A stretch of 64,000 bases of DNA from IMG/VR virus record IMGVR_UViG_3300045988_151351, positions 64,001 through 128,000 of that record; one strand, written 5' to 3'. Numbering within the stretch: the stretch's first letter is position 1; every line of letters starts with the position of its first letter. Shown piece by piece: positions 3,302 to 60,945 of the stretch. The position numbers and the translations under genes are program-made. Origin of the DNA: a virus. The notes beneath the pieces are model-generated. The model did no database searches. It was given only the letters and a program-made list of their open reading frames with translations, and was not told the DNA's origin.

Positions 3302-5545
3302 ATGATTTATATTATAAAGCGCAATGGCACAATTGTTTTATTTGATAAAAATAAAATTATTAATGCTATTAATAAAGCATTTATTGAAGTTGATGGATAG
3401 CTTTATGAAAATGATACCGCTCAAGATATCGCTAATGATATTGAACGTCAAGTAAATTATTTCCCTGATGGTAGTGTAGGGGTAGAAGATATCCAAGATT
3501 GGATTGAAGATTATTTGATGCGCTCTGAGCGTCGTGATGTAGCTCGTGCATATATTAGATATAGATATAAAAAAGAAGTTGCTCGTGAAAAGAAAGATGA
3601 TTTTATTCAAGCCATTAGGAAAAAGCTTGATGGTAAAGATATTAAAAATCAAAATGCTAACGTTGATGAAGCATCATTTGGCGGACGTATTGGCGAAGCC
3701 AGCAGTGTAGTAACTAAACAATTAGCTTTAGATTATATCTTATCACCAATGGCAAGAGATAATCATTTAAATAATATGATTTATACTCATGATCTTGATG
3801 CTTATTATGTTGGTTCTCATAATTGTTTAAGTATTCCTTTTGATGATTTACTTGCTAATGGATTTAATACTCGCTAGACAGATGTACGTCCAGCAGGTTC
3901 AGTAAATACAGCTTTTCAATTAGTGGCTGTTATTTTCCAAATTCAAAGTCTTTCTCAATTCGGCGGCGTTAGTGCCACTCATCTTGATTGGACTATGGTT
4001 CCTTATGTAAGAAAAAGTTTTTATAAACATTGGAAAGACGGAATGCGTTATATTGAAAAAGTTGATTCATGTGGGAAAGCATCTAATCCAGAAAATTTAT
4101 CTATTGCTGATAATGGATATTTAGAATTTGAAAAAGCATATAAATATGCTATGGATATGACTATTAAAGAAGTCCATCAAGCAGTAGAAGGTATGTATCA
4201 TAATCTTAATACTTTACAATCTCGTTCAGGAAATTAGTTGCCATTTACCTCTATTAATTATGGTACTTGTACTCTTCCAGAAGGAAGAATGATTACTAAA
4301 GCACTTTTGGATGTATCTATTGAAGGTATTGGCAAATTACATAAAACTTCTATTTTCCCTTGCGGAATTTTTCAATGTATGAAGGGAGTTAACCGTGAAC
4401 CAGGTGACCCAAATTACGATTTGTTTAAACTCGCATTATAGTCCACCGCCCAAAGATTATATCCCAACTACGCGAATGTTGATTGGTCAGGGAATGCTGG
4501 ATATGATATCAATGACCCACGCACCTATTTTTCTACAATGGGATGTAGAACAGCCAATGGATACGATATTAACGGTTTCGGTCAGCTAAAAGATGGTCGT
4601 GGTAATATTTGCCCAGTAACTATTATTATGCCCACTTTAGCTATGGAAGCTAAAGAAATGGCAGATCATCAATATTTTGAAGATGGTTTAGATGCTCAAA
4701 AAGAACAATATCGTTGCAGATGTTTTATGAATTTATTAGATCAAAAAATTAATGAAGCAAGAATTCAATTGATGGAACGTTTTGACTGGATTTGCTCACA
4801 AGACCCAAAATCTGCAAAATTTATGTATGAAAATAATTTAATGGCAGGTTATATTCCAGAAGAAGGAATTAGAAGTGCCCTTAAGCATGGTACATTAGCT
4901 ATAGGATAGATTGGTTTAGCTGAAACTCTTCAAATTCTTATTGGATGCGATCATACTGATCCAAGAGGAATGAAAATGGCAAAAAAGATTGAAGAATTAT
5001 TTAAACAACGTTGTGCTGAATTTAAAGAAGAATATAAACTTAATTTTGGAGTATATTATACGCCAGCTGAAAATTTATGTTATACAGCAATGCAAAAATT
5101 CAAAGAAAAATACGGCATCATACCTAATGTTTCTGATAAAGAATTTTTCACTAATAGTATCCATGTTCCCGTATGGAAGAAAATTTCTCCCTTTGACAAA
5201 ATTGATATTGAAAGTCAGTTAACAGGTTATTCTTCTGCTGGATGTATTACCTATGTAGAATTAGATTCTACTGTAAAGCATAATATTGATGCTCTTGAAC
5301 AAATTGTTAATTATGCTATGGATAAAGATATCCCTTATTTTGCAGTAAATGTGCCTAATGATACTTGCCTTAACTGCGGATATTGTGATGAATTTAATGA
5401 TAAATGTCCTGAATGCGGTAGTACCAATATTCAATAGCTACGTCGTGTGACTGGTTATTTAACTGGAAACTACAAAACTGCTTTTAACTATGGTAAACAA
5501 AAAGAAGTAGAAGCACGAGTAAAACATACGGGGTAGATGGAATGA
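3302..5545 (+). CDS. nrdD: Anaerobic ribonucleoside-triphosphate reductase (class III RNR), read through 7 in-frame TAG codons
   Basis: Track ORFs 3515.., 3923.., 4238.., 4538.., 4970.. all lie in frame 2 and are separated only by TAG. Motifs are continuous: ...GFNTR-TAG-TDVRPAG..., SGN-TAG-LPFTSINYG, MGCRTANGYDINGFGQLKDGRGNICPVTI, and the C-terminal glycine-radical region RRVTGYLTGNYKTAFNYGKQKEVEARVKH. A GGAGG RBS sits 9 nt upstream of the ATG at 3302. The true stop is TGA at 5543-5545. Confidence 0.9.
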
Positions 5546-9235: not shown

Positions 9236-9312
9236 ATGATTGGACTTAAATAAGTAATCTTCCTATCTAAATGCTAAAGTATAATAGAAGCTAAAGAAAG
9301 GAGGTTACATAT

Positions 9313-9756
9313 ATGGCCACTTTTATTGCTGAACATTTTATTGAAATTATTTTTGGACTTATTTCTGCTGGACTATTAGCATTTTGTAAATCAATTCATG
9401 GTAAAATGAAAAAGTATCAAGCAATGGTTGAAGAGCAGAAAAATGATGACCTAGATGAAAAAATTGAATCCCATATTGAGCCTATTAAAGAAGAAATAGA
9501 AGATTTGCGAAAATATATTAGAGAAGCAAAGACTATTGAAGAAAGTCATATGGAATTAATTATTGCATCTTACCGTTTTAGACTAACTCAATTGTGTCGT
9601 GCTTATTTAAAAAAGGGATATATGACTTCTAATGAGTATGAACAATTAACAGAGTTTTATAAAGTTTATCATGGGTTAGGCGGCAATGGGCAAGCCAAAA
9701 CTTATTATGATAAAACAATAAAATTACCAATTCAGCATGAAGAGCTTCCAAAATAA
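9313..9756 (+). CDS. Hypothetical protein with an N-terminal transmembrane helix (147 aa, no TAG)
   Basis: Track ORF with an AGGAGG RBS upstream. The hydrophobic N-terminus FIAEHFIEIIFGLISAGLLAF is followed by a charged, coiled-coil-like region. Confidence 0.5.
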   Translation: MATFIAEHFIEIIFGLISAGLLAFCKSIHGKMKKYQAMVEEQKNDDLDEKIESHIEPIKEEIEDLRKYIREAKTIEESHMELIIASYRFRLTQLCRAYLKKGYMTSNEYEQLTEFYKVYHGLGGNGQAKTYYDKTIKLPIQHEELPK

Positions 9757-12816: not shown

Positions 12817-12864
12817 GGTATAATTATAAATAGAGAAAGATAAAAATATTAATGAAAGGAGGAG

Positions 12865-13569
12865 ATTATCATAGTTTCAATATGTATTTGTGATAGAGAT
12901 GATTCACATGGATAGTCAATGATTACTATTATTAAAGATTATTTGTTTAAACATAATGTAATGGGAAGTATAAATTATTTTAATAATGCTAAAGATTTAT
13001 TAAGACAACCAATCTATGACGTCTATTTCTTAGATATTTTAATTAGAGATATGAATGGCATTGAGCTTGGAAAAATATTAAAACAAAAAAATGAAAAATG
13101 CGAAATAATTTATATAACTGATTAGCGTAATTATGGACCACAAACCTATGAAGTAAAGGCATTTAATTATTTATTAAAACCTATAAATATAGAAGAAATA
13201 AATGATACTTTAGATAGATTATTTGAAAAAATTAAAAGTGAATATAGATATTTAAGAACTAAAGATGGGGAAGAAAGAATTCCACTTAAAGAATTATTAT
13301 ATGCTGATATTATAGGAAGAAATTTAACTTGTCATTTCTATGATGGTGAATTAATTCAAAGTACAACTTTAAAAAAATCTTTTGAAAAAATGATAGGTCC
13401 TTTAAAAGATAATCCAGATTTTGTCTTTGTTGCACCGAGTTTATTAATTAATTTAAATTATATTAGTTCAATGAACTTAAACTATTTAACTTTTACTACT
13501 GGTGAAGTATTATATTTCCCAAAGAGCGCGTATAAATTAATTTGTGAAAGATGGAAGCAATATAGTTAA
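12865..13569 (+). CDS. LytTR-family (AgrA/LytR-like) response regulator: receiver domain plus LytTR DNA-binding domain
   Basis: Translation ...IIIVSICICDRDDSHG-TAG-SMITIIKDYLF...YDVYFLDILIRDMNGIELGK (receiver with a phospho-acceptor Asp) runs through TAG 13123 into ...IPLKELLYADIIGRNLTCHFYDGELIQSTTLKKSFEKMIGPL...FVFVAPSLLINLNYI (LytTR fold). An AAAGGAGGAG RBS at 12855 is followed by no in-frame ATG, so the gene needs a non-canonical start (ATT/ATC/ATA near 12865). Confidence 0.6.
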
Positions 13570-13578
13570 ATAGAAATA

Positions 13579-13612
13579 AGGGGAACACTCGATAATTGAG
13601 TGTTCCCCATTT
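13579..13612. terminator. Bidirectional intrinsic terminator
   Basis: ggggaacactc gataatt gagtgttcccc followed by TTTTTTTAT. It lies between the convergent response-regulator and holin genes. Confidence 0.6.
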
Positions 13613-13614
13613 TT

Positions 13615-14031
13615 TTATGATTTATTAATATTAACACTTGCTTCTATCTTTTCAGAAATATATTTATCTAAATCACCATAAATATTAGCAAGATAATCTT
13701 TTGCTTCTTGGCTAAGAATTGTTAATACTGCTTGCGTAGTTTGTTCAAATGCTTGCTTTTGAGCTTCTGCATCAAATTTGCCTTGTTTCTTTAGACTTTC
13801 TACATAAGTCTAATTCGTAGCAATAACACAACTATTAATTGTGTCAGTTAGCATTTGAATATATTTATTTGCTAATGCATTATCATTATTCTTTTGAATT
13901 TGATTACTTTTTACATTAATCCATTTAATAATAAAAGTAGTCAATACTCCTAATAATGGAATAATACATACTTGAAAAATTTGAGTTAGTAATTCACTAG
14001 TCATTATTATTTCCTCCTTAAGGTGTTCCAT
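13615..14031 (-). CDS. Putative holin (Phage_holin_1-like), 1 TAG codon
   Basis: Track ORF 13810..14031 has a TM segment (LLTQIFQVCIIPLLGVLTTFIIKWI) followed by ...SCVIATN-TAG-TYVESLKKQGKFDAEAQKQAFEQTTQAVLTILSQEAKDYLANIYGDLDKYISEKIEASVNINKS*, resembling Gram-positive phage holins (NQTYV...LKK.GKFD motif). It is the last gene of the minus-strand late region. Confidence 0.5.
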
Positions 14032-15088
14032 AAATAGTACAAGTCATATCATATCTAGCGCTTGGACTATTATTTAATAAAATTAATTCACAAAATTTTT
14101 GTGATGAAGTACTTGATTCATAACATCTACCAACAGCATAAATTCTCATTGTTCCTCCTGTTTGAGAATAATTTAATAATTCTAAGGTAGATATACCATA
14201 TAGGGTAGTTCTAGAACTATTTTCACAAACACAATATCCTTCAAAACCTTTTGATTTAATCTGTGCTAAAGTTACTCCGGAGGGATCCCCTCCTTTAAAA
14301 GATAACATATGATATGTTCCAGAGTTATAATCTGTATTAACTTTAATTGCAATAGAATAAATAGTAGAAGGTAATGCTCCTCCAAATGAAAAATTCAAAT
14401 ATCCTCCGTTACCATTACCTTCATTATAAAAGCTTGATACAGTTCCAGTATATAATTTAGCACTAGATAAAGTTCCAGTTACTCCAAAAATATTTACTCC
14501 TGATTTAATATTACTAGCAATTAAATTGCTGCTTCCAGATACAGTAATATTTCCAGTAGCATAAGAACCAGAAGCAATAGCAGTCTAAGAACTTGTGCTT
14601 GGAGTAATAGTTCTACCATTAACAGAAGGTATTGTTCCTGTTACTTTTACTCCAGAAGCAGAAGTAAATGTTTTGCCAGTAAGTACATCGGCGGCAGTTG
14701 CATTACCAAAATCTGACTTTGGAAAAACACATCTTGTATGCGCTCCTGCTCTATATAATTTTGGATTATTAAAAGGATATTTAACATAATAATATGTTGA
14801 ATCCTAAGTTCTTAAATAATCAGATAATGAACCAGATTTTTGTTCATATCCTGTTACAATTGGTATTGTACCTGTTATTTTTTCACCATTCACATAGGCT
14901 GTTTTACCTTGTCCAATATCTTCTGCAATGGCAGTTGCATCTGAAGTATCTATGCCTGTTTCAATATTTTGTATCAAATTAGGCATATCTTGAGCATTAA
15001 TTTTATTAGACGTATTAGTTTTTTCTCTAATAGCATCTCCAATTCCTGTTAACAATTCAGGGACTGTACTATAACTCATTATTTCCAT
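14018..15088 (-). CDS. Tail-fibre-like protein (about 356 aa)
   Basis: Track ORFs 14804..15088 and 14018..14398 share a frame and are joined by TAG codons. Gly/Ser/Thr-rich beta-type sequence (GTIPSVNGRTITPSTSS..., NFSFGGALPSTIYSIAIKV...). The start overlaps the upstream gene stop. Confidence 0.45.
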
Positions 15089-16812
15089 TTACCTCCTATC
15101 GCTGTAAATAATTCTATTTCTTTCCATTCATTATTTACTCCATAATATAATTTACATTCTTTCCACTCTTTATCTTTTCCAAAATAAATTTTTTTCTTAA
15201 AAACAGGATATAAATAAAGGTTACTCGGTTCGGTTCTAGTATATGTTGTATTAACTTTATAAGTTACTGTACTACTTCCTTTAGCTGTTGAATATCCTAA
15301 AAATTCACAACCTTCTAAATACTATTCATTTGGATAAATAGTAAAAGTTGCTGAAGAATAACAAGCATTATTAGTATTAGATGACCATTTAGCATATAGC
15401 TAAGTAGCACCATTAGACATAATAAAATTAGTATCTGAAGTTGAATAACTACCTCCTGGAGTAAAATTTACTCCACTTCCTGTATTTGTAGTATTCCAAC
15501 TGGATAAAGTATAAGTAGTTTTAGGTTTATACTAAACATAATTAGTATGCAAAGGAGTAGTATTATCTGACTTATATCTAATTATGGAATAGGTTGTTGT
15601 TTCCGATCCCCATACTGGTGATTTTGTAATAGAAGAAGATGATGGCATAGTAATAGTCTAAGCAATATTGTTATAATATGTTAAAGCATTAGCTGTACCA
15701 CTACCTCCATTAAGATTAAATGATAAAGAAAAATACCAAATTCCATATAAACTTAAAGAATCCTAATCAGTAGATATCGTAGCTCCTTTAGCATATTTAG
15801 GAGTTGTTGCGTTTTTATTAGTACTCCATCCTTTGAATATAAAATTAGTAGGATTGGACCAAGTAGGTGGAGTCATTGTATTTGCTCCTGTATTTGTATA
15901 AGTCCCTAAAAGAGTGCCAGTATTATTATAAAATGACATAGTCCCTTTATAAGGGGTAAATGTTAATGTATAAGGAATATAAGTAGATCCACTACCACTA
16001 AAAGCTAAATTAAGTGCTACATAATAAGTTCGACTACCTAAGAATTTTTCACTATATTTTACTTCACAGTCATATGATACGCTAGGATCCTTATCATCAT
16101 TTTTCTCAGTATCATTATTATCATATACAAAAGATGCATCACGTGATTGCCCTGGAGCTCCTTGACTTGGTTCAGTTTTAGTAATATAGCCATAGGGATC
16201 TGGACTTTTACTTCCAATAGTAGTTGTAAAAGTAAGAGTTCCTCCACAAGGAACTGTTACATTAAAATAAGATGCTCTATAATAATATACTTGTATAGAC
16301 CCACTATAACTTGAAGTATTTTCCGTATTTGTTATTCTTCGATCCGCAGAATAATGATAAGGAGCAATCCAAGAAGTATAAGTATCATTATAATCTCCAT
16401 AAGGTGTATCATAATAATCTCTATAAGGTGTATCATCATAATCTCTATAAGGTGTATCATCATAATCTCTATAAGGTGTATCATTATAATCATTATATGA
16501 AGCAGGTGGATACTAAATATGGTCCTAATCAATGTCACCACCTATACCGTCCTATACAGAAGCTCCATAGGTAGTAGTGGTTGAAAGATTACGTCCTGAG
16601 AATGTAATAGTAACAGAACCAGAATTAGAATAAAATATTAATCCATTACGCCCACTAGTTAGAGAACCGCTAGACGCAGTAAAATTCGTAGTAGCACCTT
16701 GGTTAATTTTTGGATAAATATATATTTGACCACTAGAACAATTTCGCCATGATGCAAGAATTGTAATTGAACTTCCACTAGCTGACTATAAAGATACAGA
16801 AATTGAAGCCAT
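15078..16812 (-). CDS. Tail-fibre / receptor-binding-like protein (about 578 aa) with internal DYDDTPYR tandem repeats
   Basis: An AGGAGG RBS precedes ATG 16812. Continuous hand translation MASISVSL(Q)SASGSSITILASWRN...PYRDYDDTPYRDYDDTPYRDYYDTPYGDYNDTYTSW...TFTTTIGSKSPDPYGY... contains about 12 TAG codons. It ends at TAA 15078-15080. Confidence 0.5.
16385..16480 (-). repeat. In-frame 24-bp tandem repeat (about 4 copies) encoding (D-Y-D/N-D-T-P-Y-R/G)n
   Basis: Visible on the + strand as tctctataaggtgtatcatcataa repeated with minor variants. It lies inside the fibre gene 15078..16812. Confidence 0.7.
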
Positions 16813-16815
16813 ATA

Positions 16816-17778
16816 TTATCCTCCTTCCTTATTTATAGAACTAAAAGCTAAACACCCGCCCTAACAAGATAAATTATTAAATTTTTTACAATTTTTACAT
16901 TTATCATTTTGTCCGTTAGCTTCTCTTTTAGGATAGATTGTTTTAAATAAAAAATAATTTGAAACTTCATTAATATTATCAAACTAATGCAAATCTATTA
17001 AACCATAAGCGCCAAAACAACAAGTTGCTTTAAAATCCGGAGTAATATCTATAACTGGTTTACATAAAGTTTTCCAATGAATTACATTTTTTTTTAAAAA
17101 AGCTAAATCATCTTCTTTAAAATAACAAGCAGGTATCATATTACAATCAATGCGCAATTCAATATTATTTTTATAGGCTAACTAATTTAATTCTAATAAT
17201 TGTGGGATACCATTATTGTAATATTCATCTTTATCTACTTGACTATATTGGCAAGTAGGAGCAGCATAACTAATTCTTAAATTATTTTTTTTATATTTTT
17301 TACATAATTCAATTATATAATTAAAATCCTATAAATCTGGGTATATATTAATACCAAAATTAATTTGATTTAATAGCTAATTTTTTTCAAAATTATTTAA
17401 AGTTTCTATAATACTATTATAATTACTTTCTGACATAGTATTTGGAGCATTCAAATTTATTAAACTAGATAAAGCAGAATGATTTTTAAAACTATTTAAA
17501 TATTTGTCTAAATAAATCCCATTAGAAAAAATAGTAACATTTTTTAAATCATATAATTTATCAAAACAAATATCTATATATTCTGCTAGGCAGGGATGTA
17601 AAGTAGGTTCTCCTCCTATAATACCAATTCTATTACAAGGAGTCTAATCTAAAAAATCTAATATAGTTAATAACTATTCCTTTGTTATAAGCTATTTTTC
17701 TTCCTCTGTAATAAATTTATTAGCAAAACAATATGGACACTATAAATTACAATAATTTAAAAATGCAATATTAGGCAT
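16816..17778 (-). CDS. Radical SAM enzyme with a SPASM/twitch-type C-terminal Cys cluster (about 320 aa, about 8 TAG codons)
   Basis: MPNIAFLNYCNL-TAG-CPYCFANK gives CX3CX2C if TAG encodes Gln. GIIGGEPTLHP is the GGE(P) SAM motif. The C-terminus ...NDKCKNCKKFNNLSC-TAG-GGCLAFS* is SPASM-like. The RBS lies within the upstream gene, which ends TAATATTGC over this ATG. Confidence 0.7.
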
Positions 17779-19045
17779 TATTTATTTTATCTCCTTCTAA
17801 TTTTTTTATTTCTTTTAAATTAAAAAAATTATTTTCTATTAAAATTTGCTTTAAAATAGGATTTATATTATCATATTTTAAATTAATATTTTTAATTAGA
17901 TCGTATAAAATATCATATAATTTTTTATTAAAAATGCAATAATCTTCATTGAAAGATAATTTTCCTGTAGAAAAATATTCTTTTATACATCCACCATAAC
18001 AAATATCATAATAATCACATTTTCCTTTACAATGTGTTAAAATTATATCATCAATTTTATTAATATAATCCTAATAAGTTGGTAAAGATATTAATTCTTC
18101 AAAAGAATTAATATCTCTAATATTACAAAAAATATTTTCTTTATTAACATATCCACAATGAGTAATATCACCATTAGGTAAAATTACTATCCATTTACCA
18201 ACACAATAAGTTGTATAGCATTTCCCTCTACGGCCTAATAGACATTTAATACGATTTGTAATTCCTTGATCTTCAATAGGATTGTCTGTATCATATATCC
18301 AATACCTAAAATATTCTGTAATTAATTCTAAATCTTCTTCATTATCAATATCTATTAGCATATTATTTGAATTACTATCTAATAATTTTATATCTTTAAT
18401 AAAATTCCCCTAAAAGCCATGAACATTTAATGTTTTTAAATATTCATAATTTTCAATTAAATCTTTTAAATGGGGTTTATCATACACACATATAAAACCT
18501 TTATGAGTATTTTTTAAAATAGGTTCCATGGCTAAAGTAGATTGTAGTCCTCTAGTCTCAGTATTATATATACCATTATATGAAAGTCCATATTTTATAT
18601 GATATTTTTCAAGTAATGGTAATTTATCTTCTAATAAAATTCCATTACTTTGTAAAGAAATAGGAAAATTTAAATTATATTTTTGTTTTTGCTCAGATAA
18701 ATATATTAATAAATCTTCTGGCAATAATAAAGGTTCTCCACCATGCCAAGTAATTTCTCGAATATGAGAACCAAATTTAGTAAGAATCTAATCTAATAGT
18801 TCTTTAGTTATAATCTAATCTTTATATTCATATCTAATAAACTAATTTTCACAATAAGGACAATTAGCATTGCATTCATAAGAAGCATGTAATAAAATTA
18901 ATACATTATCTATAGTATGAAATGACATATCATCTACTAACTATAAATCATCTAATTTAGATAATAATTCATTTTTATATTTAACTTTATAGGGCTAAAT
19001 ATGATTATACTTTAACCATAATTTTTTTTCTTCTTCGTATGTCAT
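17771..19045 (-). CDS. Radical SAM / SPASM-domain enzyme (about 424 aa, about 7 TAG codons)
   Basis: Start MTYEEEKK at 19045. Motifs ...LHASYECNANCPYCEN (CX3CX2C), ITWHGGEPLLLP, ...HCGYVNKENIFCNIRD...CKGKCDYYDICYGGCIKEY (auxiliary-cluster cysteines). Track ORFs 18410..18724 and 18071..18361 are in one frame joined by TAG. It ends at TAA 17771. Confidence 0.7.
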
Positions 19046-19285: not shown

Positions 19286-19828
19286 TTAATAACTGTTATT
19301 CACTAAACCATTAACATAAGTATAAACTGCTCTTGCCGTTGGAACTTGACTATCTCCAGAACTTGAATTTATTACTGTGACTACTGGAAATGTAGTTCCT
19401 CCCGAGGATGATGAATCTCCATTATTATTACTAAGAGATAAATAAGGAAAACAAATAAAATTAAAAATATCTCCAATTCTAGTCTTATAATTACTTCCCA
19501 CTAAATTAATTTCAGTTTTATTTGTATTTAAAGTATAATTTTCCATTTTATTTAATAATAAACCATTCTAAAATACTAATAATTGTTTTTCATCAATTAT
19601 TTCTATTGTATTAGGAATGGGAATAGTCTAAGTTATCTCTGATATAATTACTGTTTCATTTATTAAACTTTTATAAAATAATCCTTGAGAAATAGCTGTT
19701 TGTAGATCATAAGTAGAGCCGTTTATATCAATATAAACGGCTCTACCAAGAGTCTACGGGAAAATAGGATTTTTATCATTATCATGCTATTCTGTGGTCT
19801 ATAACAATTTAATATATTCTTCATTCAT
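19286..19828 (-). CDS. Hypothetical structural-module protein (about 180 aa)
   Basis: Track ORF 19286..19546 extends upstream through 4 TAG codons to ATG 19828 (MNEEYIKLL(Q)TTE(Q)HDNDKNPIFP...). Its start overlaps the stop of the giant glycine-rich gene. Confidence 0.4.
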
Positions 19829-22800
19829 TTTGTGTTAGCCACCTTCCATTATAATTAACTTGAAAATCTTTAATTAATTTCCATTCATTATTTATTTTAA
19901 CATAAGTATCTTTAATACGATACCATTCACCATTATCTTTTATATATTCATCAGTTGGGCCATCTAAAACAGTAATAATTATAACTCCATCTCCATAATT
20001 ACCAATTCGTGTATTTAACTAATCTGGCTATAGAATTTTTTCCTAACCAGTTTTAGAAATAGTATCTGATAAATAATAATTTGGTGTTAATAAGCATCCA
20101 GAAGGATAATTAACCGCAGTAGAAGAAGTATAAACATAATTTGAACCGCCTCCACCGCCGCTACCCAATTGGCTTGTATCAGTAGTGTAAGTTCCAGCAC
20201 CGCCATACCAGCCACCACCACCAGCGCCAGAAACAACACCAATTCCAATAGCTCCACTTTTTATAGTTATACCATTTCCACCAAATCCAAAGCCACCATA
20301 ACAGTCTAATTGAGTAGAATAACTATTTGACTAAGTATCTTTTATCCAATTATTATTTACACCAGTTTGATTTCCACCATAACCACCACTAGTAGTACCA
20401 CTATTATATAAAGTAGCATTTAAACCTCCACCAGCACCGCCTTGGTATCCTTTATATCCACCTTCTGAACCGCCACCGCCAGCGACTATTACTCTAGCAT
20501 AAAGAGAATTAGAACCAATTCTTATATCAGTTCCTCCACCACCAGCAGGATAATTTTGACGTTTTCCACCGCCATTGAATCCTCCAGCAATACCAGATCC
20601 TCCTACTCCAAACCATATAGGAGTAGTTTTAGTTAAAGTTAATACGCCAGATGTATAACCACCTCTATTATTTCCAGTACTATTATCGCTATAATAATTT
20701 CCAGAAGCAATTCCACCTTGAGCACCCCAGCATTCTAGTTTATAACGTCCAGGAGGAAATGAAAATGGTCCTATTACTGCGCCATTTGGCGTTTCAAAAT
20801 TGCCCATAAAAGTACTAGTCTAAGGAATAATAATCTATTTTCCCTTTTTAATAACACAATTATAAGGAGATGAAATTACTTTAACTACGATACTTTTTGA
20901 GATATGCGCATAATTGCTATCATTATTATTATTTACAGTAATCGTAGCACGACCAATTTTATTAGCTTGTACAGTAATCCCTCGACCTTGATTATCACCA
21001 GCAATTAAATCTCCTATTGATACTATTGTATTATCATCTGATGCAAATGATAAGTTACTATAATTACCATTATACAATACTGCTAAATTAACAGAATTTT
21101 CAACAACAATATAATGAGGATCCTAAATCTATAAATATGAAGTAGCAGGATTTATCTGCCACTCTATAGTTTTATTGCTAGTTGTTCCATCTGACCATTT
21201 AGTATTTGTAGTATCTATTAAAGAAAGAACCGTTGTATAATTTCCTGCATTAGAAGCTGAAGTTGTTCCACCATTTATTGAATAAAGAATATCATAATCA
21301 GAATTATCATATAATATATCGCTAGCAAAATACCATGTATTTCCATTATATTGAATAGTTGTCTAAGGTTCAGGGATTAACACTGGAGTATATGATAAAT
21401 TCTCATAAGTCATTGTAAAATATGGAATTCGTTTTGTTAAGCCAGAAATCTAAGTCTAATCTGGACTATAACAATACATATATATTAAATCTCCAGCTTT
21501 TAAAGCAACCTCAAAAGATACAGTTCTTTGTTCCTAAGTAATATAATAATACTAAAAATTATTTCCATTTATCTATATACTAAATTGACTCATCCAATAA
21601 GAACCTATATCATCAAGATTTACTTCTGCCCCAAAAGTAAATTTAATTTTTACATTTTTCTTTACTCTGCCTCGATAATAAGCATAAAAACCAGTAAGAG
21701 GAGTTTTATTAGTTTCATATCTAGATGTATTAGAATTATAATAAAAACAATTATCATAATCACTAATATTTTCAACACCTTCATCAACATTTAACTAAGT
21801 AATACGCACATAACCAGTACCATTATGTCCCGTTTCAGATGAACCTGTTGGAGAAGTAAATGAAACATTTCCTCCGATAGTCTAAGCATTTTCAAGATAA
21901 TATTTACTATCTAATAAACATCCAGATGGATAACTAGTAGCAGTTGATGAAGTATATACATAACCGCTACCTCCTCCGCCGCCTTGATTATCAGCTCCAG
22001 TTCCAGAAGAAGGTGGAGAAGTTAAATTGGAAACAGTTAAACCACCATACCAGCCGCCGCCACCGCCACCACCATCATAAGCATGACGTCCTTGACCAAA
22101 ACCTCCTCCTGAAGTTTGACTTCCTCCAGCAGCACCACCAGTACCACCTGATAGTCCTCCGCCATAACCGACTGAATCACCACTATCTTCTCCGCCACCT
22201 CCGCCGCCACCGGCCACAATCACACGAGCATAAAGAGAAGTAGAATTGATACGAATATCAGAAGCACCACCACCGCCACATCCTGGTTCTGAGCTACCAG
22301 ATCCCCAAGCTGATCCACCACCATTATATCCTCCTGAAGACAAAGATCCATATCCAACAGCTCCAATTCCACCACTATAGCAATGTAATGTAGTAGGTCT
22401 TAATAAAGTAAGATTACCATAAGAATACCCTCCTAGTCCTCCAAGACCTGCGGCTGAATTACCATCTTGTTGTCCTCCTCCTCGAGCACCCCAACATTCT
22501 AATTTATATTTACCAGGATTAAATTTTTTGCTATAAGATCCTGAACCGGAAATATTTAAATCATTAGAAACATATCCAATTGATAAAACAGTAATGCGTA
22601 CATAGCCATTACCACTATGACCAGTTTCAGAAGCACCAGTAGGTGAAGTGAATGATGTATTACCAGCAATAGTATTTCCACTTGTTAAATCGTATTCATT
22701 TTGGTATACGTTAAAGCTATAATATCCGCTGCCGCCTGCATTTTGTTCTCGATAAGTACTATCATTATCATTATAGCCAGTCTAGGCACCACCGCCATAC

Positions 22801-23855
22801 CAGCCACCGCCGCCTCCTCCAGCTCCGTATCTATAATTAGTGCCCTAAGTAGTACTTGCTCCTTGACCAAATGCTCCTCCACTACCTGCTTCATATCGAG
22901 TAGAACGATATGTACTATTATTACAATAGCCAGTCGCTCCTCCACCATATTTTAAATCATCATGTAATCCTGCGGCTCCACCACCACCGCCAGCAACAAC
23001 TACTCGCTAATTATAAGAATCTGTTCCAATACGAATATCAGAAGCGCCACCACCACCGCCGCCAGAAGTATAAATATCCTACCACCAACGACGTCCGCCA
23101 GATCCGCCACCATTAAATCCACCAGCATTAGTTCCTCTATCAGTACTGTGAGATGATTGTCCTTGGCCGCCAGCATAACAATATAAAGTAGTATGAGCCT
23201 ACTTTAAAATAGCTATCTAATAACTGTATCCGCCTTTGCCACCATCATAAGTTGGAAAAACACTAAAATTAGCCTAATCATATGACGGAGAACCTCTAGT
23301 AATTGTAACTGCAACACTTTCGCCAGAAACAGAAGCACTGCTATCTTTAGTATAGGTCATCATTACTTCATCATCTACATTTAAATACTTAGAATAAGTA
23401 CCATTATTAGTACCGCTTACAGCACTTACGACTGTAGTTCCACCCACTGTTAAAGTAAATTTATCAAAATTCTATTCTGTTGTATATGAATATACAAACT
23501 AATAATAACCCGCTGTTACACAAGTTAAAATTGTCTGAGCAGTACTACTATCCACAGCTAGATTATTAGCAGACCAAGTTCCATTAGTATCTGGAACAAA
23601 ATGATAACTTGAAATAGCTCTAGAAAAATAAGTAGAAAAATTATTAGAAGTAATATTTGTATTATAATTTATACTACTTGGATTATTGGTACTAGTATAA
23701 CCAGTTCCTCCTTGAGCACCCCAGCATTCAAATTTATACTATCCAGCAGGTAATTGAACAATTTTTTTGTTTCCGCTATAAGGACAATTTAATATGTCTC
23801 CTGCTCTTAAAAGATAATACTTTGGAATCGAAGAAGTTAAATCATATGTTGCCAT
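19821..23855 (-). CDS. Giant glycine-rich fibre-like protein (about 1344 aa) built from three paralogous modules
   Basis: A GGGAG RBS precedes ATG 23855 (MATYDLTSSIPKYYLLRAGDILNCPYSGNKKIVQLPAG(Q)YKFECWGAQGG...). Track ORFs 21882..22343, 20835..21077 and 20331..20807 lie in the same frame. The gap 20808-21881 was checked and holds only TAG stops. The module Y-K-[LF]-E-C-W-G-A-x-G-G ... D-I-R-I-[GN] ... Y-A-R-V-[IV]-V-A-G-G-G-G occurs three times. The gene ends at TGA 19821-19823. Confidence 0.5.
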
Positions 23856-23858
23856 AAA

Positions 23859-24467
23859 TCAATTCTCCCTTACTATCCAAATATCTCCATTTTTGCCTTC
23901 ATTATTAGTAGGAGCTGAAGTAGATACTAATATTGGGCGATAATATCTATTAGTAGAACTTATTGGAGTAGTACCAGCCGTATATTCAATTGGATTATTA
24001 ACCATTTTAACTACACCAGTTATTTCATTGTTACCGTTTTTAGTAATATAATTATTTAATTGTGTTGGTAAATCATTAATTAATAAATATCTACTTAAAA
24101 TAGTATTTAATTCTGCTTTACTCACATACTCACCATCATTTAAAATTTCACTAAACTACTCTATTGGATTAGTCTATAATACTCCTTTTTCAGGCTAGAT
24201 TTCATAAATACCAGCGTTATCTGTCTCTTTTAATAAAAAATCTGCCTTATTAGCATTCAACTATATGCGGTATTCTTTAATATTTTCTTTAGTTAAAGTC
24301 GCTCCATCTTTAAGTGGACTATCAATAAAAAAATTACCCGTATCAGGTGAAAAATAAGCCCATCCAGGGTTGAAAGGGACTGCTAATTCTTCCTGCTAAG
24401 TACTTTCATTAATTTTATATTTAAATAGATCCTCTTCATTTCCAGAATTTATTTTAAATAATGCCAT
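23859..24467 (-). CDS. Hypothetical structural-module protein (about 202 aa)
   Basis: An AAGGAG RBS precedes ATG 24467 (MALFKINSGNEEDLFKYKINEST...). It passes 4 TAG codons into track ORF 23859..24125 and ends at TGA, overlapping the next RBS. Confidence 0.45.
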
Positions 24468-27342: not shown

Positions 27343-30300
27343 TTATCTTACAATTGGATCAAAAGTATATTGACAACCACTATTCTAAATATTAGAAATT
27401 ACTTCATTCATTGCTGCCATAACAGAACTTTCAAATTGAGCACGATAATAATATCTAATAGTACCAGTATACTTATTGCCCTTAGTTGGACCAAATGCAG
27501 TAGATTGAGTTAAAGAATTTGGCATACAAGCAAACTAACTTAATGGATATTTATTAGTACCTAACTGAATTAATAAAGCACCAGTTATTGGATATACATT
27601 ATCAACTTTGCTGCCAATAATATGCATACGACCAAAAGAATTACTATTTAAATTAAGTACTCCGTCTTTACATCCTTCTAAAACGAAAGATTTAGTTTTT
27701 CCACCAATTTGTGTTTCCTAAAAAGCATAACTACCAATATATAAACCTTTTAAGGAAGAGGAATAAGGAATACGTTCAACCTAATTTAAATTAGTTTTAT
27801 AGAATGTATAATCACCTATTTTTTCTAAACAATCACTAAATTCAAAATACTATAAATTAGTTGCACCAAAAAATGTTCTACTATCTATTGAAGAAATTTT
27901 ATTACTCAATTTTGGACTAAAATAAATACCAGTAACATTAGTATTCATAATAAAAGCTGTTGCACTTTGACTGCCACTAGTATTTTCAATACGAGTAATA
28001 GATTGTCCATTATAAGTTGATGGTAATGTAATTTTTCCTCCTAAATACTTACACATATCAAAGAAATGTATATAGTAAGTATTATTAGAAGTATCTTTTC
28101 TTATTTCATAATATTGATGATTATCATCATTTTCTAAGATATTATCATAAACATTAACTAATTCTCCAATAGCATAGAAGGTACGATCAGCATATGCTAA
28201 CTGTTTATTTAAATCAATTCTTACGCCATCTGGACTATCAGCAGCCCAGCCTGTTTGTTTCCAAGTTGTTTCAAAAGAAATCAATCCTTGCGCTGGACGT
28301 GTTTCATCCGTATTAAAATCATCTACGCTGTTCTTATAGTAATAGAAATTATTAGGAACGGTGATTCTAGTACCGTATAAATAAGTTCCAGTTACCTTAG
28401 AAATACCATCACCATTCACAAAAGTAATTTCATATGATTTACGCTCAAATCCTGCTGTAAATACATAATCTAATTTATTTGGATTTAATGTTAAAGTATT
28501 CCAATTATTTGAAGTAATCTAATCCTTCTTATTTTCGTCTTTATCAACTGTAATTATGAAATTATTATTTTCATCTTTCCAGCCTTTAAAATCATCAATA
28601 GGACGCTTTTCCTACAAAGTACCAAATGAAATATAATTATTCTTTGTTTTATCTGTAGGATCATCAAAGAAGGTTTGAGAAGAAGAACCATCAGAATTCT
28701 TAATTAACTTCTAAGTTTTTAAGATTTCTTGAGCAATAACATTTCCATCTTCATCTGTTTCTTCAACAATAAATTTTACAGAGTATTCCTTATTAACATT
28801 TTTTACAAAAATTGTTAAATTAGGATAAATGGATTGAAGTTCATTTTGAATAATATGCTCATCAATAGCTTCATTATTTTCAATATATACAATACCTGTA
28901 ATATTAGGATTTTTCTAGTTTATACCTTTAAAAGTATTATCTTTATTGTAAATCTAAGATTCATCATAAATTTTCTTTAGTAAGTCAGTGTAATTTACTA
29001 TTTTACTATGGATTTCTTCGTAGCCATTTACCGTTTCATCAAGGTAGTAAATTAATCCATTCTTAATATCTAACGTAGTAATTTTACTAACTTCATTATA
29101 TGGGATTACATCTAATTGAAAATGTCCGTTATCTTTAAAGTATTGAACATTATCAGGATCTAATTCAATTTTATCATCATTCAATAATCTATATGGACTC
29201 CATTGGACATCAACAAAATTAATTTCACAATCTTTTAAATTACTCTTTTTACATCCAAGATAATAGCGTCTTAATAATTCATAACTATAATATCCAAGAT
29301 TGCCGCCTTCAATATCCATAGTTTTGATTTTAGTTTCAATTTGGTCATCATCTTTATCTGTCAGATTCTAAATATATAATCCTTTATTTTCATCTGCTAC
29401 AACTAATCGTCCTGTCGTCGGATTAAGTGTAGGATTAACATAAGTAGTAATTAATTTATTCAATAAATTTGCTTCAATTAAAGTTAAATAATTAGTTTCA
29501 CTAGTTAAATAAAGCGTATCTAATGCTACGCCTTTTGCAAATTCTACTCTTGGAATATTAGATCCAGTATTTCTAAAGTTTTCTAGCTTTTCACTCTTAG
29601 TTAAATTTAATGCTGGCTAATCTTTCTTAAAAGTAATATTACATAGATTCATTTCTTTTAATAAAGGCATACCAGTTTTAGGATAAGACCAATCATTAAC
29701 ATCTTTATTAAAATAAGCATATGGCTAACCATCTTCGATAGCAAGACCATCATAACCCAATAATAAATCTGTCATTTTATCTGCTTTACCTTCCATAGCA
29801 AATTCTTGGAAATATAATTTACTTAAATCTCCTAAAGATTTCATCTAATCAGTACCATAAATATAATATAACTATTCACGATAATTACCACTAGACATAA
29901 TACCTTTCTTTAAATCAGGAGCTGTAAATTTAACTGGACTTAATCCATTATATTTCTAAGAAGCAAAATTTGCTCCATCAGTACCAACAGTAACATATGA
30001 ATTACGTGCTGGCGACATTTCAATCCAATATTCGCCGTCAAAAATATGATTCTTTTCACCATATTCAATATTATCTTTCCAATATTGAGCATTAGTAACT
30101 AAATTAGTCATACCTTGAGTATTAGTACCTTCAATCCATTTATCAGAAGTATTCTTTGGGTTATTCGCAGAAATACGACTTCTAATAAAATTACCACCAC
30201 TACCACTAGCATAACCATCAACAGTTAACCAAGAATCAATATAGTTAAGACGATTAGATAAAAATTGCGCGCGATATAAGTTACGGTCACCCTATAAAGC

Positions 30301-33300
30301 ATAAAAATATTGGTCAGTTTCTACCGCATATTTGCCTTCATTAGTTAAACGACCAAATATAGTATTTTCAGCGGCTGAATTAGTAGGAATAATATATTTA
30401 TATTCTTCATCTAAATTTAATGCCAATAATGGGCGGTCACCCTTCACAGCATAACTATCAGGGAACACTGAAGGATCAGTTTTATACCATTTATCAACAA
30501 TCGCACTTTTATCACTATTGGTATCAGAGTCTTTAGCAAAAATCTAAGTGACTTTAGATGGAGTATAAGATCCATTACTAAATCCCATTAATTGCTTATA
30601 TTTATCTACAATTTTGCTCTTAAAAAATTGATAAAAATTATTCCACAATACACTATCATTAGTAGAAAAACTTCCATCAATAGTGGCATCAACGTAATAT
30701 TCAAATGATGGAATACCAGTATTATTAATACCTAATTGAGTATCAATATCATAGAAAATTGGATACCAAATATAATGTTGAATTCCAGTCGCTTTTTCGA
30801 TATTATTCTTTTGTGGACCCCACGAAGCAAACATCGCATTTTTACCACGAGAGTCATAACATTCAAAAATTTCAGTCATTAAGAAATAAGTTGCTAAATA
30901 TTCAATATTAAAATAATTACTTAACTCATTCTTAAATTTTGCTTGACGATATTCTTTACAATCTTTAGTATATGTTACTCCACCATAAGTAACAGGAGCC
31001 GGTAATAACCATCTATCATCAATATTAGCTTCATTCTGAATTAACTAATAATAAGATTCATTGGCATTAAATCTATCATTACTAATAGTATAAATATTAT
31101 TTTTTTCATCTTGTAAAATATAGTATATACCAGTCTTATAAACTTTATTTTCATTATTAGTTAAAGTAATTAAATTATAATCTATTCCATTTAATTTATA
31201 ATACTTTATTTCAGAATTAAATTCATCATTAGAAATTCCATATATATCATTACCCGCATCATTAGTTCCGGTAACTACATAATATTTTCCTCTTTCGTAT
31301 AAAGCTTCTGCTAATCCATCTACTAAATTATATTGACCAATAGAAGGAATTTCATATAAAATTCCATCAAAATCAATACTACAATCTAAACAAGTACTCC
31401 AAACCCAACTAACAGCATCCTCCCAGTTAGACATTAATGCTAGTAATAATTCACGAGAGGTATTAGCATTAGTACTATCAAATTTAACAGATTCCTAACC
31501 TGGATTTGTAATAATTATTTCAGTAGATTTTTGACCTGTAGTTTCATCAGTAATTTTATTAACTTGGATTCTGTCTGGAGCTGTATTAGCTATACCATTA
31601 ACCCAGTCAGGTAAATCATCAGCGTAACTACCTGAAGCAGTATCTTTACATTCGAATAAAGCTTTTGAAATTAAATCATCATTAGCATTATATCTAACTT
31701 CAAAAGAATCGGCTACCATTGGAGCACCATGAGTAGTTACCCCATTATTATTATCCATAATTGGAGGTCTAAATGATAACTTATAACGATTCCAAGGATC
31801 GCGGAAAGAACAATAAGTTCTTGAGTTATTCTAGAACTCCCAACATTCAGCAATATCTCTTACTTTTGGTTTTCCTTCAATCTAATTCTATAAAACTTTT
31901 TTATTGGGCTTAAATCCAAAACATTCATCAGAGCCTTTGTCCAATAACATATTATATTTACCAATATATATAATATCACTTTCATTATTATATTGATTAT
32001 TATTATCTGAAGGCCAATGGAAAGCTAAAACAGGGAATCCTTTCATGGAAGTTCTATAGTCATCAGTATTTCCATATAAATCATAGTTATCAAAAGAATC
32101 TTTATAATCACAAATCGGATGCTATGAATAAGTTTCATTAACCAAATTAGCAAAACCTCGGTTATAATCACCAGAAGATTCCATAAAATCTATTTTTAAT
32201 GTAAATTTAGTTGTACCAACTGTCTCATTATCCATATAGAAAAATTCAATAAAGCATTTGCTATTTTTATTTAAAGTATTATTAGTTTTATCTTCTTCAT
32301 ATAATTTTTCAAATGGACCTTTATTCATAAACATTACATTTTTACATTTAGCTTTATAATTACGACGAGGATAATTTCTAGAAGAAGTTCCCTAAACCTA
32401 AAAAGTACATCCATCAATAGTAGTAGTAAAACTAGGACAATGATGCATATAATAATTTTGGACAGGAGTGTAAATAACTTCTTTAGTTACACTATCCAAA
32501 ATCGGAGGCCATTTTACAGGATCTAAATTTACTATATTATCTAGTTCACCACGAGCATAGGCAGCATCCAAAGGTACATTTATAAATTCTAAAGTACCCG
32601 CTTGCGCGCCTTTATCTTTAGAATAAGGCAATCTATTCTAAGTATTTTCATTATTATTAGCAGTAGTTCGCAAAATAATATATGGCATCAAAGGCTCATC
32701 TTGATGAGCGCTATTATAAGCTTTCATTCGCTGATAAGAAAAAACTTCATCTTGAATATCAGCTCGAGATTCATATAAATCTTTCTAATCCCAATACTTA
32801 ATATTTTTTTTATCAAAAGCATAATTCTATACAACTTCATGAATAGATAAATCTGTGTCATATACTCTAATACTATACAAATCAATATCACAAGTATTAG
32901 ACATAAATTTAATTACATCAGAATTAATACTCCACATTGAAGAACTACTACGACGAGCAACGCTAGTTAAAACACCATTCATAAAAATTTCTAATAACTT
33001 AGAGTTGCCACCAACCATGCCCTCTTTTGCCTTTGTATAAACAAAAGTTAAATTTAACATCTTATCTTCAACAAAATCAACAGATACAGTTTCTTCTTTA
33101 CCATTTGCAGTAAATGTAGCGTCCTATGGACTAAAATAAATACCCAATGGATCTTCTTCTGAGCCATAAGCGCAAATTAAATTATTTTTTAAATCAAAAA
33201 TCTACTCTAATCTATCATAAGTTAATTCATCATAAGTTGGAGCTTCTGGATGTTTAGGTAAATATTCCTAAGTTAAGAAAGTATCATAATTTAAATATGT

Positions 33301-35118
33301 ACTCTGATTTCGGAATTCTTTCCAAGCATCATCATCAGTCCAATCCTATTTAGAAGAATCTGCTTCATCACTGGCTTTATAACGAGTATATTTAGTAATA
33401 ACCTTAGTATAATTCTAAGGATTTCTAATTTTAAATTGAATTTCAATAGTATGCGTAGAGGTAGCACTACCATTATCAAACTCCAATGAACCAATAGGAA
33501 TAGAAATTTCAGCACCATTACTAATTCTTAAACAAGTTACATTATTTTCATCAAATAGCCAACCATTATTATACCAGTTAAAATTCTTAAACGTTGCACG
33601 CTTACCATTAATTTCAAGAGTTTCTCTGCTTAATTTACTTTCTGAATTTGAACGTCCAGTAGCAACAAAATTAACTTTTAAATCACTTTCACGCGCTAAC
33701 TTCATATCACGTAATGGATCAACTGAAATATCAAAAGTAAAATTACGAGAATAATCATACGGTTCTGTACCAACTTTAATAGTATAATAAGCGCTATCAT
33801 TTACAGCAAGATTAGTAATTTCCCAATATTCCCATTCAGCATTATTAGAAGTAATTTGTCTTGTACCAATTAATACACCATTTTTATATAAATAGACTGT
33901 GGCAATTTGATTATTTGGATCTAATACTTTAAAAGGAATTCTAATTGTTTCATAAGTATAGTATTCTGTTTTAAAATTACCAGTCCAAATTAAAGGAATT
34001 AAGCTCGTTCTATCTCTAATAGCAATTTCTTTAGTAATAAATGGCGTTCCATTACCTTTTATTCCATTCTAAGATAAATATAATTTTGCTTTAATAGTAT
34101 GTTCTCCATGAGTAAAAACATCTTTTAAAGTAGTCGCTTTAGTTGAATTTAAAATAACTGTATCAGCAGTAATAGTAAAATCATCATTAGCTTGATTAAT
34201 GTTATCTCCTTTATATTCTCTATTCAAAACTAGATAATCATCAAAATATACTTCTATGGTACGTTCTACTCCACTTGACATTAACCATGCTGTTCTCACT
34301 GAACCATCATCAAAAGGATAAATATTAGAAAAATTATCTTCCTTCCAAGATAAATCCAAAGCATGTTTTGTAATAAATACAGTACGCTTAGTTGGCGCTA
34401 AAAATTTATTATTTTCAGGGTCTGGATTGTTAGTAATATCAAAAGTAATTTGATGAGTAGTTGAATCTCTTAATACTTCTGTTAAATCAAATGTTTGAGC
34501 AACATTATGATTGAATACAACTCTATCACTTTGCCAAATTACTTCATATCCTTCACCAGATTTATTTTGCTAACTAACTGTTATTTGACCTTCTACAGAC
34601 TCTGCTTGCGGCACGTTATCTATAGTACGGCACTTAACTAAAACAGTCACACTAGCCTATTCATTATTTAAAATATCTTGTGTACAATTTAAAGTTAAAG
34701 AAGTAGAACCTAGTACTTTTTTTTCAGAGCTTTCGTCACTTCCTCCACCCATTGTTAATTTTTCACATTTTGCACATTCTTCTCGATCTTCATTTAATCC
34801 AGTTCCTATAATGCGATAAAAGCATCCATCTGAATTTAAAATTAAATCATTTATATGATAATTTGTTGTCGATAACTTACCAATCTCAATTAAATAATCA
34901 ATAGGATTCTCATCTATATCATATTCAATTTCTGCGTTATCATCAGTACCATATATTACCTATACGCCACTAGAACCAATGGGTAATTTATTCTCGTCGG
35001 CAGTATCTAAATAAATGCGGCCAGTATCAGTGGCAACATAAAAATATCCTTCAGTCTAAGGAAAATTTTTAATCTTTTCTTCTAGGCCTTGTACTGGACG
35101 GAAATGAATTTTAGACAT
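27343..35118 (-). CDS. Giant virion-associated protein (about 2591 aa) with C-terminal BspA-type leucine-rich repeats
   Basis: An AAGGAG RBS precedes ATG 35118 (MSKIHFRPVQGLEEKIKNFPQTEGYFYVATDTGRIYLDTADENK...). Every minus-strand track ORF from 27850 to 34359 (ten ORFs) is in the same frame. Each gap from 27343 to 35118 was checked codon by codon and holds only TAG (more than 50 of them), never TAA or TGA. The C-terminus (...YFEFSDCLEKIGDYTFYKTNLN(Q)VERIPYSSSLKGLYIGSYAF(Q)ETQIGGKTKSFVLEGCKD...) is LRR-like. The gene ends at TAA 27343-27345. Confidence 0.5.
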
Positions 35119-35238
35119 ATTTTACTCCTTTCTATCCTATAAAAAAATTATGGGGAAAGAAGAACACCTTCTTTCCCCATAAAAACATTCTTCTATATAA
35201 GAAGAAAAAATTATAAGCAAAATTAATTTATATTGGCC

Positions 35239-50851: not shown

Positions 50852-50886
50852 AGGTGAGATCCATTAAGAATCTCACCTTCATTTTA
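50852..50886. terminator. Intrinsic terminator hairpin downstream of the tape-measure gene
   Basis: aaggtgagat ccattaag aatctcacctt. On the minus strand it is followed by TTTTCTTTTTGGG. Confidence 0.5.
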
Positions 50887-60216: not shown

Positions 60217-60261
60217 TGATATAACTCCTTTCTCTCTTGTCGTTTTTATCTTACGTAAAAT

Positions 60262-60879: not shown

Positions 60880-60945
60880 AACATATTCCTCCTTTTACTC
60901 TTTATATAATTATACAAAAATTTTTGTGATTCGTCAAATTTAAAA

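Follow-up and report, generated by a model that had tools for sequence, protein, structure and literature searches.

A TAG-recoded phage gene encodes a putative tail protein with three ALK-type glycine-rich domains

The gene and its TAG codons

The window analysed in this study is a 64-kb stretch of phage DNA (64,000 nucleotides, positions 64,001 to 128,000 of the IMG/VR record IMGVR_UViG_3300045988_151351), which carries a replication and nucleotide-metabolism block on the plus strand and a long structural operon on the minus strand. The gene under study, hereafter the target, belongs to that operon and occupies 19821-23855 on the minus strand (-), where translation gave 1344 codons followed by a terminal TGA. 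It starts with an ATG at 23853-23855 and stops with the TGA at 19821-19823, and direct reading of the sequence placed a Shine-Dalgarno-like AAGGGAG (23865-23871(-)) 9 nt upstream of the ATG. The gene junctions are tight; the TGA of the upstream gene lies 3 nt before the ATG of the target, and the ATG of the downstream open reading frame (ORF), which encodes 180 aa at 19286-19828(-), overlaps the target stop by 8 nt. By analogy with characterized proteins, the product would be a further phage tail protein with ALK-type glycine-rich domains (GRDs), a known kind with no new mechanism. Its distinction lies in its architecture, with three GRDs, one nested domain and immunoglobulin (Ig)-like spacers, and in a gene that is hidden by TAG recoding.

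Within the target frame, 26 TAG triplets were found but no TAA or TGA, and the other two frames contained 75 and 169 stops. Under the standard bacterial code (table 11), the region is divided into fragment ORFs of at most 158 aa; the single frame is open because TAG is read as sense. A preliminary description of the window, made from the letters alone, had reported one uninterrupted frame at this position. That claim was borne out, the frame being one gene of 1344 codons interrupted by TAG only, but TAG recoding as the reason for its openness had been missed. The gene is under purifying selection, with a ratio of nonsynonymous to synonymous substitution rates (dN/dS) of 0.31 against an orthologue of 73% identity. 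In the same orthologue, TAG was kept in place at 17 of the 26 sites, and it was exchanged with CAA or CAG four times and with serine codons five times.

TAG is a sense codon across the whole window. Two larger minus-strand frames, 50884-60282 (3133 codons, 91 TAG) and 27343-35121 (2593 codons, 39 TAG), are otherwise open, and the plus-strand frame 3302-5545 provides another example. All 32 long ORFs of the window terminate with TAA (26) or TGA (6) and never with TAG. In the TAG-containing ORFs, TAG accounted for 14-71% of the glutamine-like codons (TAG, CAA and CAG taken together). Four ORFs were free of TAG, namely the DNA-polymerase-like ORF 2-2668(+) of 889 codons, the virion structural protein ORF 62246-63247(-), and the ORFs 60346-60894(-) and 9295-9756(+). 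The anaerobic ribonucleotide reductase of the window, which contains seven TAG codons, aligned from end to end with solved homologues; its TAG codon 312 corresponds to a glutamine conserved in both of them, and the remaining TAG sites were aligned with K, E, H or N, and one with F/Y. TAG is most likely read as glutamine, with which this alignment is consistent, short of proof. TAG-to-glutamine recoding is, moreover, established in gut phages (PMC9523058; bioRxiv 10.1101/2021.08.26.457843).

The region might be thought to be not one gene but a read-through artefact, several small genes or a pseudogene. Its division into short ORFs by table 11 would favour such a reading, as would the result of ARAGORN, which found no tRNA genes in the 64-kb window and hence no CUA suppressor tRNA there. 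However, the frame is broken by TAG alone, the Pfam domain matches continue across the TAG codons, and most of these codons are conserved in an orthologue that evolves under constraint. Furthermore, the recoding extends throughout the window, where TAG never terminates an ORF, and phages that read TAG as glutamine have been published, so that the artefact explanation is effectively refuted. Metagenomic contigs carrying near-identical proteins reach approximately 200 kb. The genome of this phage is probably of that size and its host probably a low-GC gut bacterium of the Clostridia type; in a genome of approximately 200 kb, the suppressor tRNA may sit outside the window.

Three modules and the domains around them

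The protein contains three diverged copies of one module. The CWGA motif of each copy starts at 23726, 22496 and 20732, respectively, all in one frame, in good agreement with the 23740, 22500 and 20770 estimated in the preliminary description. Hidden Markov model (HMM) envelopes placed the modules at aa 25-426 (with an insertion at aa 51-204), aa 434-690 and aa 1020-1299. The first module is split into part a (23706-23783(-), aa 25-50), which comprises the first beta-strand and YKFECWGAQGG, matches PF12810 and covers model positions 1-34, and part b (22578-23243(-), aa 205-426), which was located by the module alignment and covers model positions 37-258. The second module lies at 21786-22556(-). 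The third, at 19959-20798(-), covers model positions 2-257 and represents a diverged subtype with a GFGFGG motif; the third modules of the orthologues form one cluster.

The three modules are collinear over approximately 255 residues, with 71 invariant columns, and share 49% (first and second), 49% (second and third) and 37% (first and third) identity. At columns without glycine the respective values were 44%, 40% and 28%, and Smith-Waterman scores between modules lay 12-26 standard deviations above composition-preserving shuffles. Glycine richness thus does not account for the repeat, and the claim of three diverged copies stands. The protein is not, however, simply composed of them, as had been described. 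The modules make up approximately 58% of it, the first is split by an inserted domain of 154 aa, and approximately 330 aa of non-glycine domains separate the second from the third; this nested insertion and Ig-like middle region had escaped the preliminary description.

The target matched the Pfam family PF12810 (ALK_LTK_GRD) in four stretches with 373.2 bits against a cut-off of 24.5 (E=1e-111), and the second module spans all profile positions, 1-243 of 243. The signature motifs YxxxxxGAxGG, strand-GG, GGGGxxD/Y-strand, strand-AGGGG, FGxG and GGGGG(W/Y)xGG are invariant or nearly so in all three modules. Furthermore, a profile built from 25 diverse modules reached human ALK (E=7.8e-5), with the signature motifs in ALK order. 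When this profile was run against the PDB at E<=10, ALK chains alone were returned, and the phage proteins Pam3 gp24 and Bxb1 gp33 were not detected; searches of PDB sequences with a three-module profile and with the second module alone gave no matches. No NCBIfam family matched the target, and all four PHROG families that matched carry the label 'unknown function'.

The AlphaFold2 model of aa 1-700 had a mean pLDDT of 80.7 and a pTM of 0.50, and its best Foldseek matches were 20 ALK and LTK TG-domain entries. In this model, the modules adopt a TNF-like beta-sandwich with a glycine-helix lattice, an ALK-like predicted fold that is structurally similar to the solved phage domains of Pam3 gp24 and Bxb1 gp33. 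The structure prediction that had been proposed as a check thus agrees with the family assignment. The glycine-run segments were labelled 'other' by DSSP in the model, and a polyglycine-II lattice is the geometry proposed for them by analogy. In the model of the C-terminal half (pTM 0.56), the third module was of low confidence owing to a shallow alignment and was left uninterpreted. The pTM values of both models indicate that the predicted domains are not confidently packed against one another. The preliminary description had likened the module to glycine-rich-protein domains rather than classical fibre folds. The likeness is confirmed by PF12810, but the opposition is outdated, since the GRD-type fold occurs in solved phage tail parts, namely Pam3 gp24 and Bxb1 gp33.

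Outside the modules, the N-terminal segment of approximately 24 aa (23784-23855(-)) is a candidate virion-attachment peptide. It ranks among the more conserved segments, with 88-100% identity in orthologues whose overall identity is 73-98%, and aa 1-50 had a dN/dS of 0.06. Over aa 1-49/56, the target is 52-57% identical to two more distant relatives (P0009 and P0010). The all-beta domain at aa 51-204 (23244-23705(-)) is nested in the first loop of the first module; its model resembles a CUB/CBM-like jelly-roll (CBM, carbohydrate-binding module), which makes it a candidate lectin-like binding domain. Between the second module and aa ~1010, three confidently modelled beta-sandwich domains start at aa 691 and resemble the strings of Ig/FN3-like domains (FN3, fibronectin type III) of surface proteins according to AlphaFold2 and Foldseek. 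Middle domain A (21366-21785(-), aa 691-830) is a beta-sandwich with a pLDDT of 80-95, for which Foldseek returned such strings; on reading, a relation between it and the insertion of the first module had been suspected, but BLASTP showed no similarity. Middle domain B (21141-21365(-), aa 831-905) is the fastest-evolving segment of the protein, with a dN/dS of 1.08 against the orthologue of contig L001 in a small sample of 75 codons, and with 64% identity to the relative P0006 against 90% in the second module; the high ratio might point to a surface that makes contacts or to a patch acquired by recombination. Middle domain C with its linker (20799-21140(-), aa 906-1019) is an Ig-like beta-sandwich with a pLDDT of ~70-90 and Ig/FN3-like Foldseek matches. 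A homologue search with the middle region gave two weak matches only. Residues 827-982 are 32% identical to a DUF6273 protein of a Faecalibacterium phage, and the protein P0298 carries PF19789.

The C-terminal tail (19824-19958(-), aa 1300-1344) consists of repeats of the form (N/G)x(E/R)W(Y/K)xI. Within the structural operon, this tryptophan-repeat motif was found only there and at the C-terminus of the product of ORF 15079-16815(-); one of the two proteins carries NGEWYRI and NNEWKLI, and the other DKEWKEC and NNEWKEI. Similar tails are present in P0010, in P0103 and in an 813-aa prophage protein, and prophage GRD proteins end in NGAWTHI or NGSWIKV. The shared end may be a docking or wall-binding tail.

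Relatives and the tail operon

Full-length orthologues of 98% to 48% identity all carry three modules in the same places together with the insertion, and P0009 and P0010 have the layout of two modules, a gap and a third module without the insertion. A related recoded phage encodes a version with two modules (P0022). Three modules were also found in 116 of the 120 highest-scoring homologues; bit-score ranking favours multi-module proteins, and an exhaustive search of representatives was therefore run with one module. It returned 3305 cluster representatives at 50% identity. Among the best 150 of them, 63 had one module-equivalent, 44 had two, 21 had three, 17 had four to five and five had seven to eight, the last in proteins of 5-7 thousand aa. 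The comparison of copy number suggested in the preliminary description thus gave a constant three among the orthologues and one to approximately eight across the family, so that three is not a special number. PF12810-type proteins also occur in multiple copies in Bacteroidota (at least nine loci in Odoribacter lunatus, and several each in Segatella albensis and S. paludivivens) and in metagenome-assembled genomes of Holophagaceae and Flavobacteriales. The domain thus serves bacteria in general as a surface module, and not phages alone.

Proteins of approximately 879 aa with three back-to-back GRDs form a very abundant class (the P0103 class) in standard-code Clostridia prophages, where the gene lies between an Mtd_N/fibre-repeat gene and the endolysin gene. 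Its best genome match was Blautia difficilis, and no name or description of this triple-GRD class was found in the literature. In common with the target, its members have three PF12810 modules per chain, a similar short C-terminal tail and a location in the tail-fibre module; unlike the target, they have no nested insertion and no Ig-like middle, use the standard code, show modules shuffled between positions and adjoin a CXXX-repeat radical SAM maturase system.

The preliminary description regarded the repeats within the gene as substrates for recombination and module shuffling. Between the modules of the target, the best DNA matches were 56 nt at 70-82% and 29 nt at 93%. Such short imperfect matches, together with a copy number that does not change among orthologues of 98% to 48% identity, make the repeats poor substrates for unequal homologous exchange, and the recombination claim does not hold for this gene. 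The triplication is old, since the modules are position-specific in the lineage of the target. Shuffling does find support at the level of the family. The orthologues diverge in a mosaic pattern: the second module is 65% identical in P0007 against 79-83% in the other GRD segments (part b of the first module and the third module), the insertion shows 71-75% identity in P0004 and P0005 where the adjacent sequence shows 95%, and dS (the synonymous rate) ranged from 0.18 to 0.76 across regions. In the 879-aa class, cassettes occur in the orders [a,b,c], [d,a,c], [a,e,f], [d,e,f] and [d,b,g] (proteins P0011, P0012, P0014, P0021, P0024 and P0103; contigs L002-L004 and L008). Cassette identity across proteins reaches 90-98%, compared with 55-64% between modules within one protein; for example, module 2 of P0014 is 92% identical to module 1 of P0011. 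These comparisons of sequence are a clear sign of cassette shuffling in the prophage class.

In the structural operon of the window, the order of genes is a virion structural protein, a tape-measure protein, a tail protein, several very large unannotated proteins, the target, the 180-aa ORF, two radical SAM genes and two more putative tail proteins. The genes for the tape-measure, tail and virion structural proteins thus lie upstream of the target on the same strand. The tape-measure protein (50884-60282(-)) has 3110 aa and matched phrog_4211 (E=1e-72). Tail length follows a rule of approximately 0.15 nm per tape-measure residue, by which this protein would correspond to an unusually long tail of roughly 450 nm. 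The upstream neighbours of the target matched neither Phage_tail_fib nor any other family. A 2591-aa protein (27343-35121(-)) upstream of the fibre genes, whose L001 orthologue has a weak LRR_5 match and whose prophage counterpart of 2407 aa carries DUF6273, may be a giant adhesin-like tail protein. On the opposite strand within the structural region, a 216-aa ORF (12856-13569(+)) may encode a phage-encoded response-regulator-like protein, since its L001 orthologue was called with Pfam Response_reg. The 180-aa ORF gave no family match and adjoins the GRD gene in L001 and L006 as well; by analogy with Pam3 gp25 and PtsN, it is a candidate fibre chaperone or partner.

No close relative was found among deposited phages. 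Megablast of the target region returned only a 50-nt match on the CWGA motif, tblastn of one module against phages gave no match, the glycine runs being masked by the low-complexity filter, and tblastn of the full protein matched phages only through aa 827-982.

Proposed function and alternatives

We consider, with moderate confidence, that the TAG-recoded phage carries the target on its tail, as a multivalent adhesin whose GRDs serve as rigid display scaffolds. This reading is favoured because of the cases of Pam3, PtsHN10M/JD032 and Bxb1. The conserved N-terminal peptide of approximately 25-50 aa would dock the protein to the tail or baseplate. From there, a chain of domains like beads on a string would extend outward, in the order of the first GRD with its nested CUB/CBM-like domain, the second GRD, three Ig-like spacers, the third GRD and the tryptophan-repeat tail, a predicted layout that agrees with a pTM of 0.50 alongside a high pLDDT of the domains. 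Each GRD would form a TNF-like beta-sandwich extended into a rigid lattice of polyglycine-II helices, and its variable parts would be the loops that link the glycine runs. Multivalent, individually weak contacts with polymers of the host surface would then come from the three GRD 'brushes' together with the nested lectin-like domain, and host range would be tuned by swapping whole segments or modules among related phages. What we infer here is that the protein is present in the virion, that it docks by its N-terminus and that it binds, as well as which domain contacts the receptor. The mosaic divergence, the dN/dS of middle domain B and the cassette shuffling in the 879-aa class are suggestive of host-range-like evolution. 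The receptor-binding type assigned to the gene in the preliminary description fits its position in the tail operon and the existence of GRD-bearing phage tail proteins, which speak for a tail or receptor-binding role; binding itself would follow by inference.

Several known proteins are comparable. The adhesin gp38 of Salmonella phage S16 (polyglycine-II sandwich, PDB 6F45) reportedly combines a rigid polyglycine-II lattice with variable distal receptor-binding loops, which is the mode proposed here for the target GRDs. Human ALK (7LRZ and 7NX3) and LTK (7NX1) have the PF12810 GRD in common with the target. They carry one GRD in a receptor-kinase ectodomain that binds ALKAL cytokines, whereas the target, encoded in a phage tail operon, has three, one of which harbours a nested beta-sandwich. 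Pam3 gp24 (PDB 7YPX) forms a homotrimeric fibre with a TNF-like and a glycine-rich domain at its distal tip, for which receptor binding was proposed but not shown (PMC9608196). It has one C-terminal GRD in a short homotrimer with an N-terminal helical anchor, and its likeness to the target is structural only, as is that of Bxb1 gp33 (PDB 9D93), a single domain attached through gp31 and gp30. Multivalent, individually weak contacts were proposed for the Pam3 fibre tip (PMC9608196) and for mycobacteriophage brush domains. Brush or polyglycine-rich domains of siphophage tail tips are likewise discussed as antireceptors (PMC13243795).

A further comparison is with PtsM (PtsHN10M; JD032_33), a receptor-binding protein of Clostridioides difficile myophages and prophages, in which the PF12810 GRD begins, as in the target, within approximately 15-25 residues of the N-terminus (aa 25 for the first GRD of the target; aa 15-252 for the GRD of JD032_33). 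In the C. difficile myophage JD032, this single-GRD protein occupies the receptor-binding slot, and the PtsM gene resembles the target in its distal position in the tail-fibre region and in the small ORF behind it, for which a chaperone role has been proposed. Unlike the target, PtsM has a single GRD, the standard code and an unrelated C-terminal receptor-binding region. BLASTP similarity between the target and JD032_33 was limited to the GRD, and neither a homologue of the SlpA-binding C-terminal region of PtsM (BLASTP) nor, among the upstream neighbours, a PtsL (gp105-like) partner was found. Gp22 of the C. difficile phage CDHS-1 and publications on SlpA were considered for comparison and set aside because neither involves a GRD.

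Several points weigh against the adhesin reading. The tail location follows from gene order and analogy, and the window lacks the suppressor tRNA. Biochemical testing of PF12810 phage proteins is limited to PtsHN10M, which has an N-terminal Pfam glycine-rich domain; its C-terminus (259-570) sufficed for cell binding, but no binding was seen with the GRD alone (1-269), a result for which the authors caution about misfolding (PMC9615553). The Bxb1 wing that carries the brush is dispensable for growth (PMC12646305), so the role of the target may by analogy be accessory. Furthermore, no trimerisation element was recognised in the target, the inter-domain geometry is of low confidence in both models with the third module poorly modelled, and Pam3 gp24 and Bxb1 gp33 match the modules in structure but not detectably in sequence.

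The PtsHN10M result also bears on a live alternative, which we judge less likely, namely that the protein is a tail appendage whose GRDs are inert scaffolds, spacers or protein-protein attachments, with recognition residing in the CUB/CBM-like insertion, middle domain B or the C-terminal tail. It agrees with the dN/dS of middle domain B, the highest in the protein, with the lectin-like fold predicted for the insertion, and with the glycine runs being the most conserved columns. Yet the 879-aa proteins consist almost wholly of three GRDs, and their cassettes are shuffled as would be expected of specificity determinants; the second module is the most diverged region in the orthologue P0007; the authors on Pam3, Bxb1 and LSH1 place glycine-rich tips distally as putative antireceptors; and the truncation of PtsM is subject to the misfolding caveat. 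A further alternative would account for the number three itself: the GRDs of a single chain might pack together as a pseudo-trimer and so imitate the TNF-like/GRD tip of Pam3, which is homotrimeric. TNF-like domains and the Pam3 tip are trimeric, and three modules prevail among the highest-scoring homologues and persist in orthologues down to 48% identity. The prevalence, however, is biased by bit score, as the spread of copy number in the best 150 representatives shows; the joint model of the first two modules gave no confident packing, a related phage makes do with two modules, and approximately 330 aa lie between the second and third. A pseudo-trimer is thus highly improbable.

The last alternative concerns chemistry. 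Two genes downstream of the target, ORFs 17771-19045(-) and 16816-17778(-) encode radical S-adenosylmethionine (SAM) enzymes (PF04055). The former matched the SPASM family TIGR04085 with 30.1 bits against a cut-off of 27, and both enzymes remain at the generic SPASM level, below the cut-off of every specific family. Just after them, ORF 15079-16815(-) encodes a putative tail protein of 577 aa with four DTPYRDY(D/Y)D repeats; the enzymes are retained in contig L001 together with a YDDYDDYDNYDNYDNYGDY tract, and both are missing from L006. In the Clostridia prophages, the neighbouring enzyme is a CXXX-repeat maturase (TIGR04115, 528.7 bits against a cut-off of 350) located near the triple-GRD genes (L008, 15228-16559; L002, 14629-15984). 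In L008, 11989-14430 encodes the 813-aa protein, in which approximately 230 aa of CXXX repeats (46 CxxxC, 64 Cys) are fused to two GRDs, and in L002 a 244-aa call (13524-14258) appears to be a wrong-frame call of a CXXX-repeat gene.

The gene order of the target and the two enzymes, which is the same in L001, together with the prophage maturases and the fusion of CXXX repeats to two GRDs, might suggest that the GRD protein is itself a substrate of the two enzymes and is covalently cross-linked after translation. That is very improbable: the GRD gene of L006 and L007 has no adjacent radical SAM genes, by which an obligatory link was rejected; the target has only 15 scattered cysteines and no CXXX/CxxxC run or other short repeat; and the Tyr/Asp tract is present or absent together with the enzymes. 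The Tyr/Asp-repeat neighbour is therefore the likelier substrate on sequence grounds, and the repeats suggest an enzyme pair that modifies this structural protein, perhaps by cyclophane-type links. The broader proposal that the phage enzymes cross-link tail proteins of this module, among them perhaps the triple-GRD protein, is improbable, if slightly less so; the two SPASM-type enzymes sit between the GRD gene and the Tyr/Asp-repeat protein, and both flanking proteins share the C-terminal motif. If true, the host-binding apparatus would be chemically reinforced by cross-links.

In conclusion, the analysis supplies a name and a fold for a large class of tail proteins, from phages and prophages alike, that had lacked annotation, and it provides an example of how stop-codon recoding conceals long structural genes from standard annotation. 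The mapped domain borders would offer natural swap points for host-range engineering of Clostridia phages. The ALK-type GRD emerges as a reusable and shuffleable extracellular building block of gut phages, able to host nested domains.

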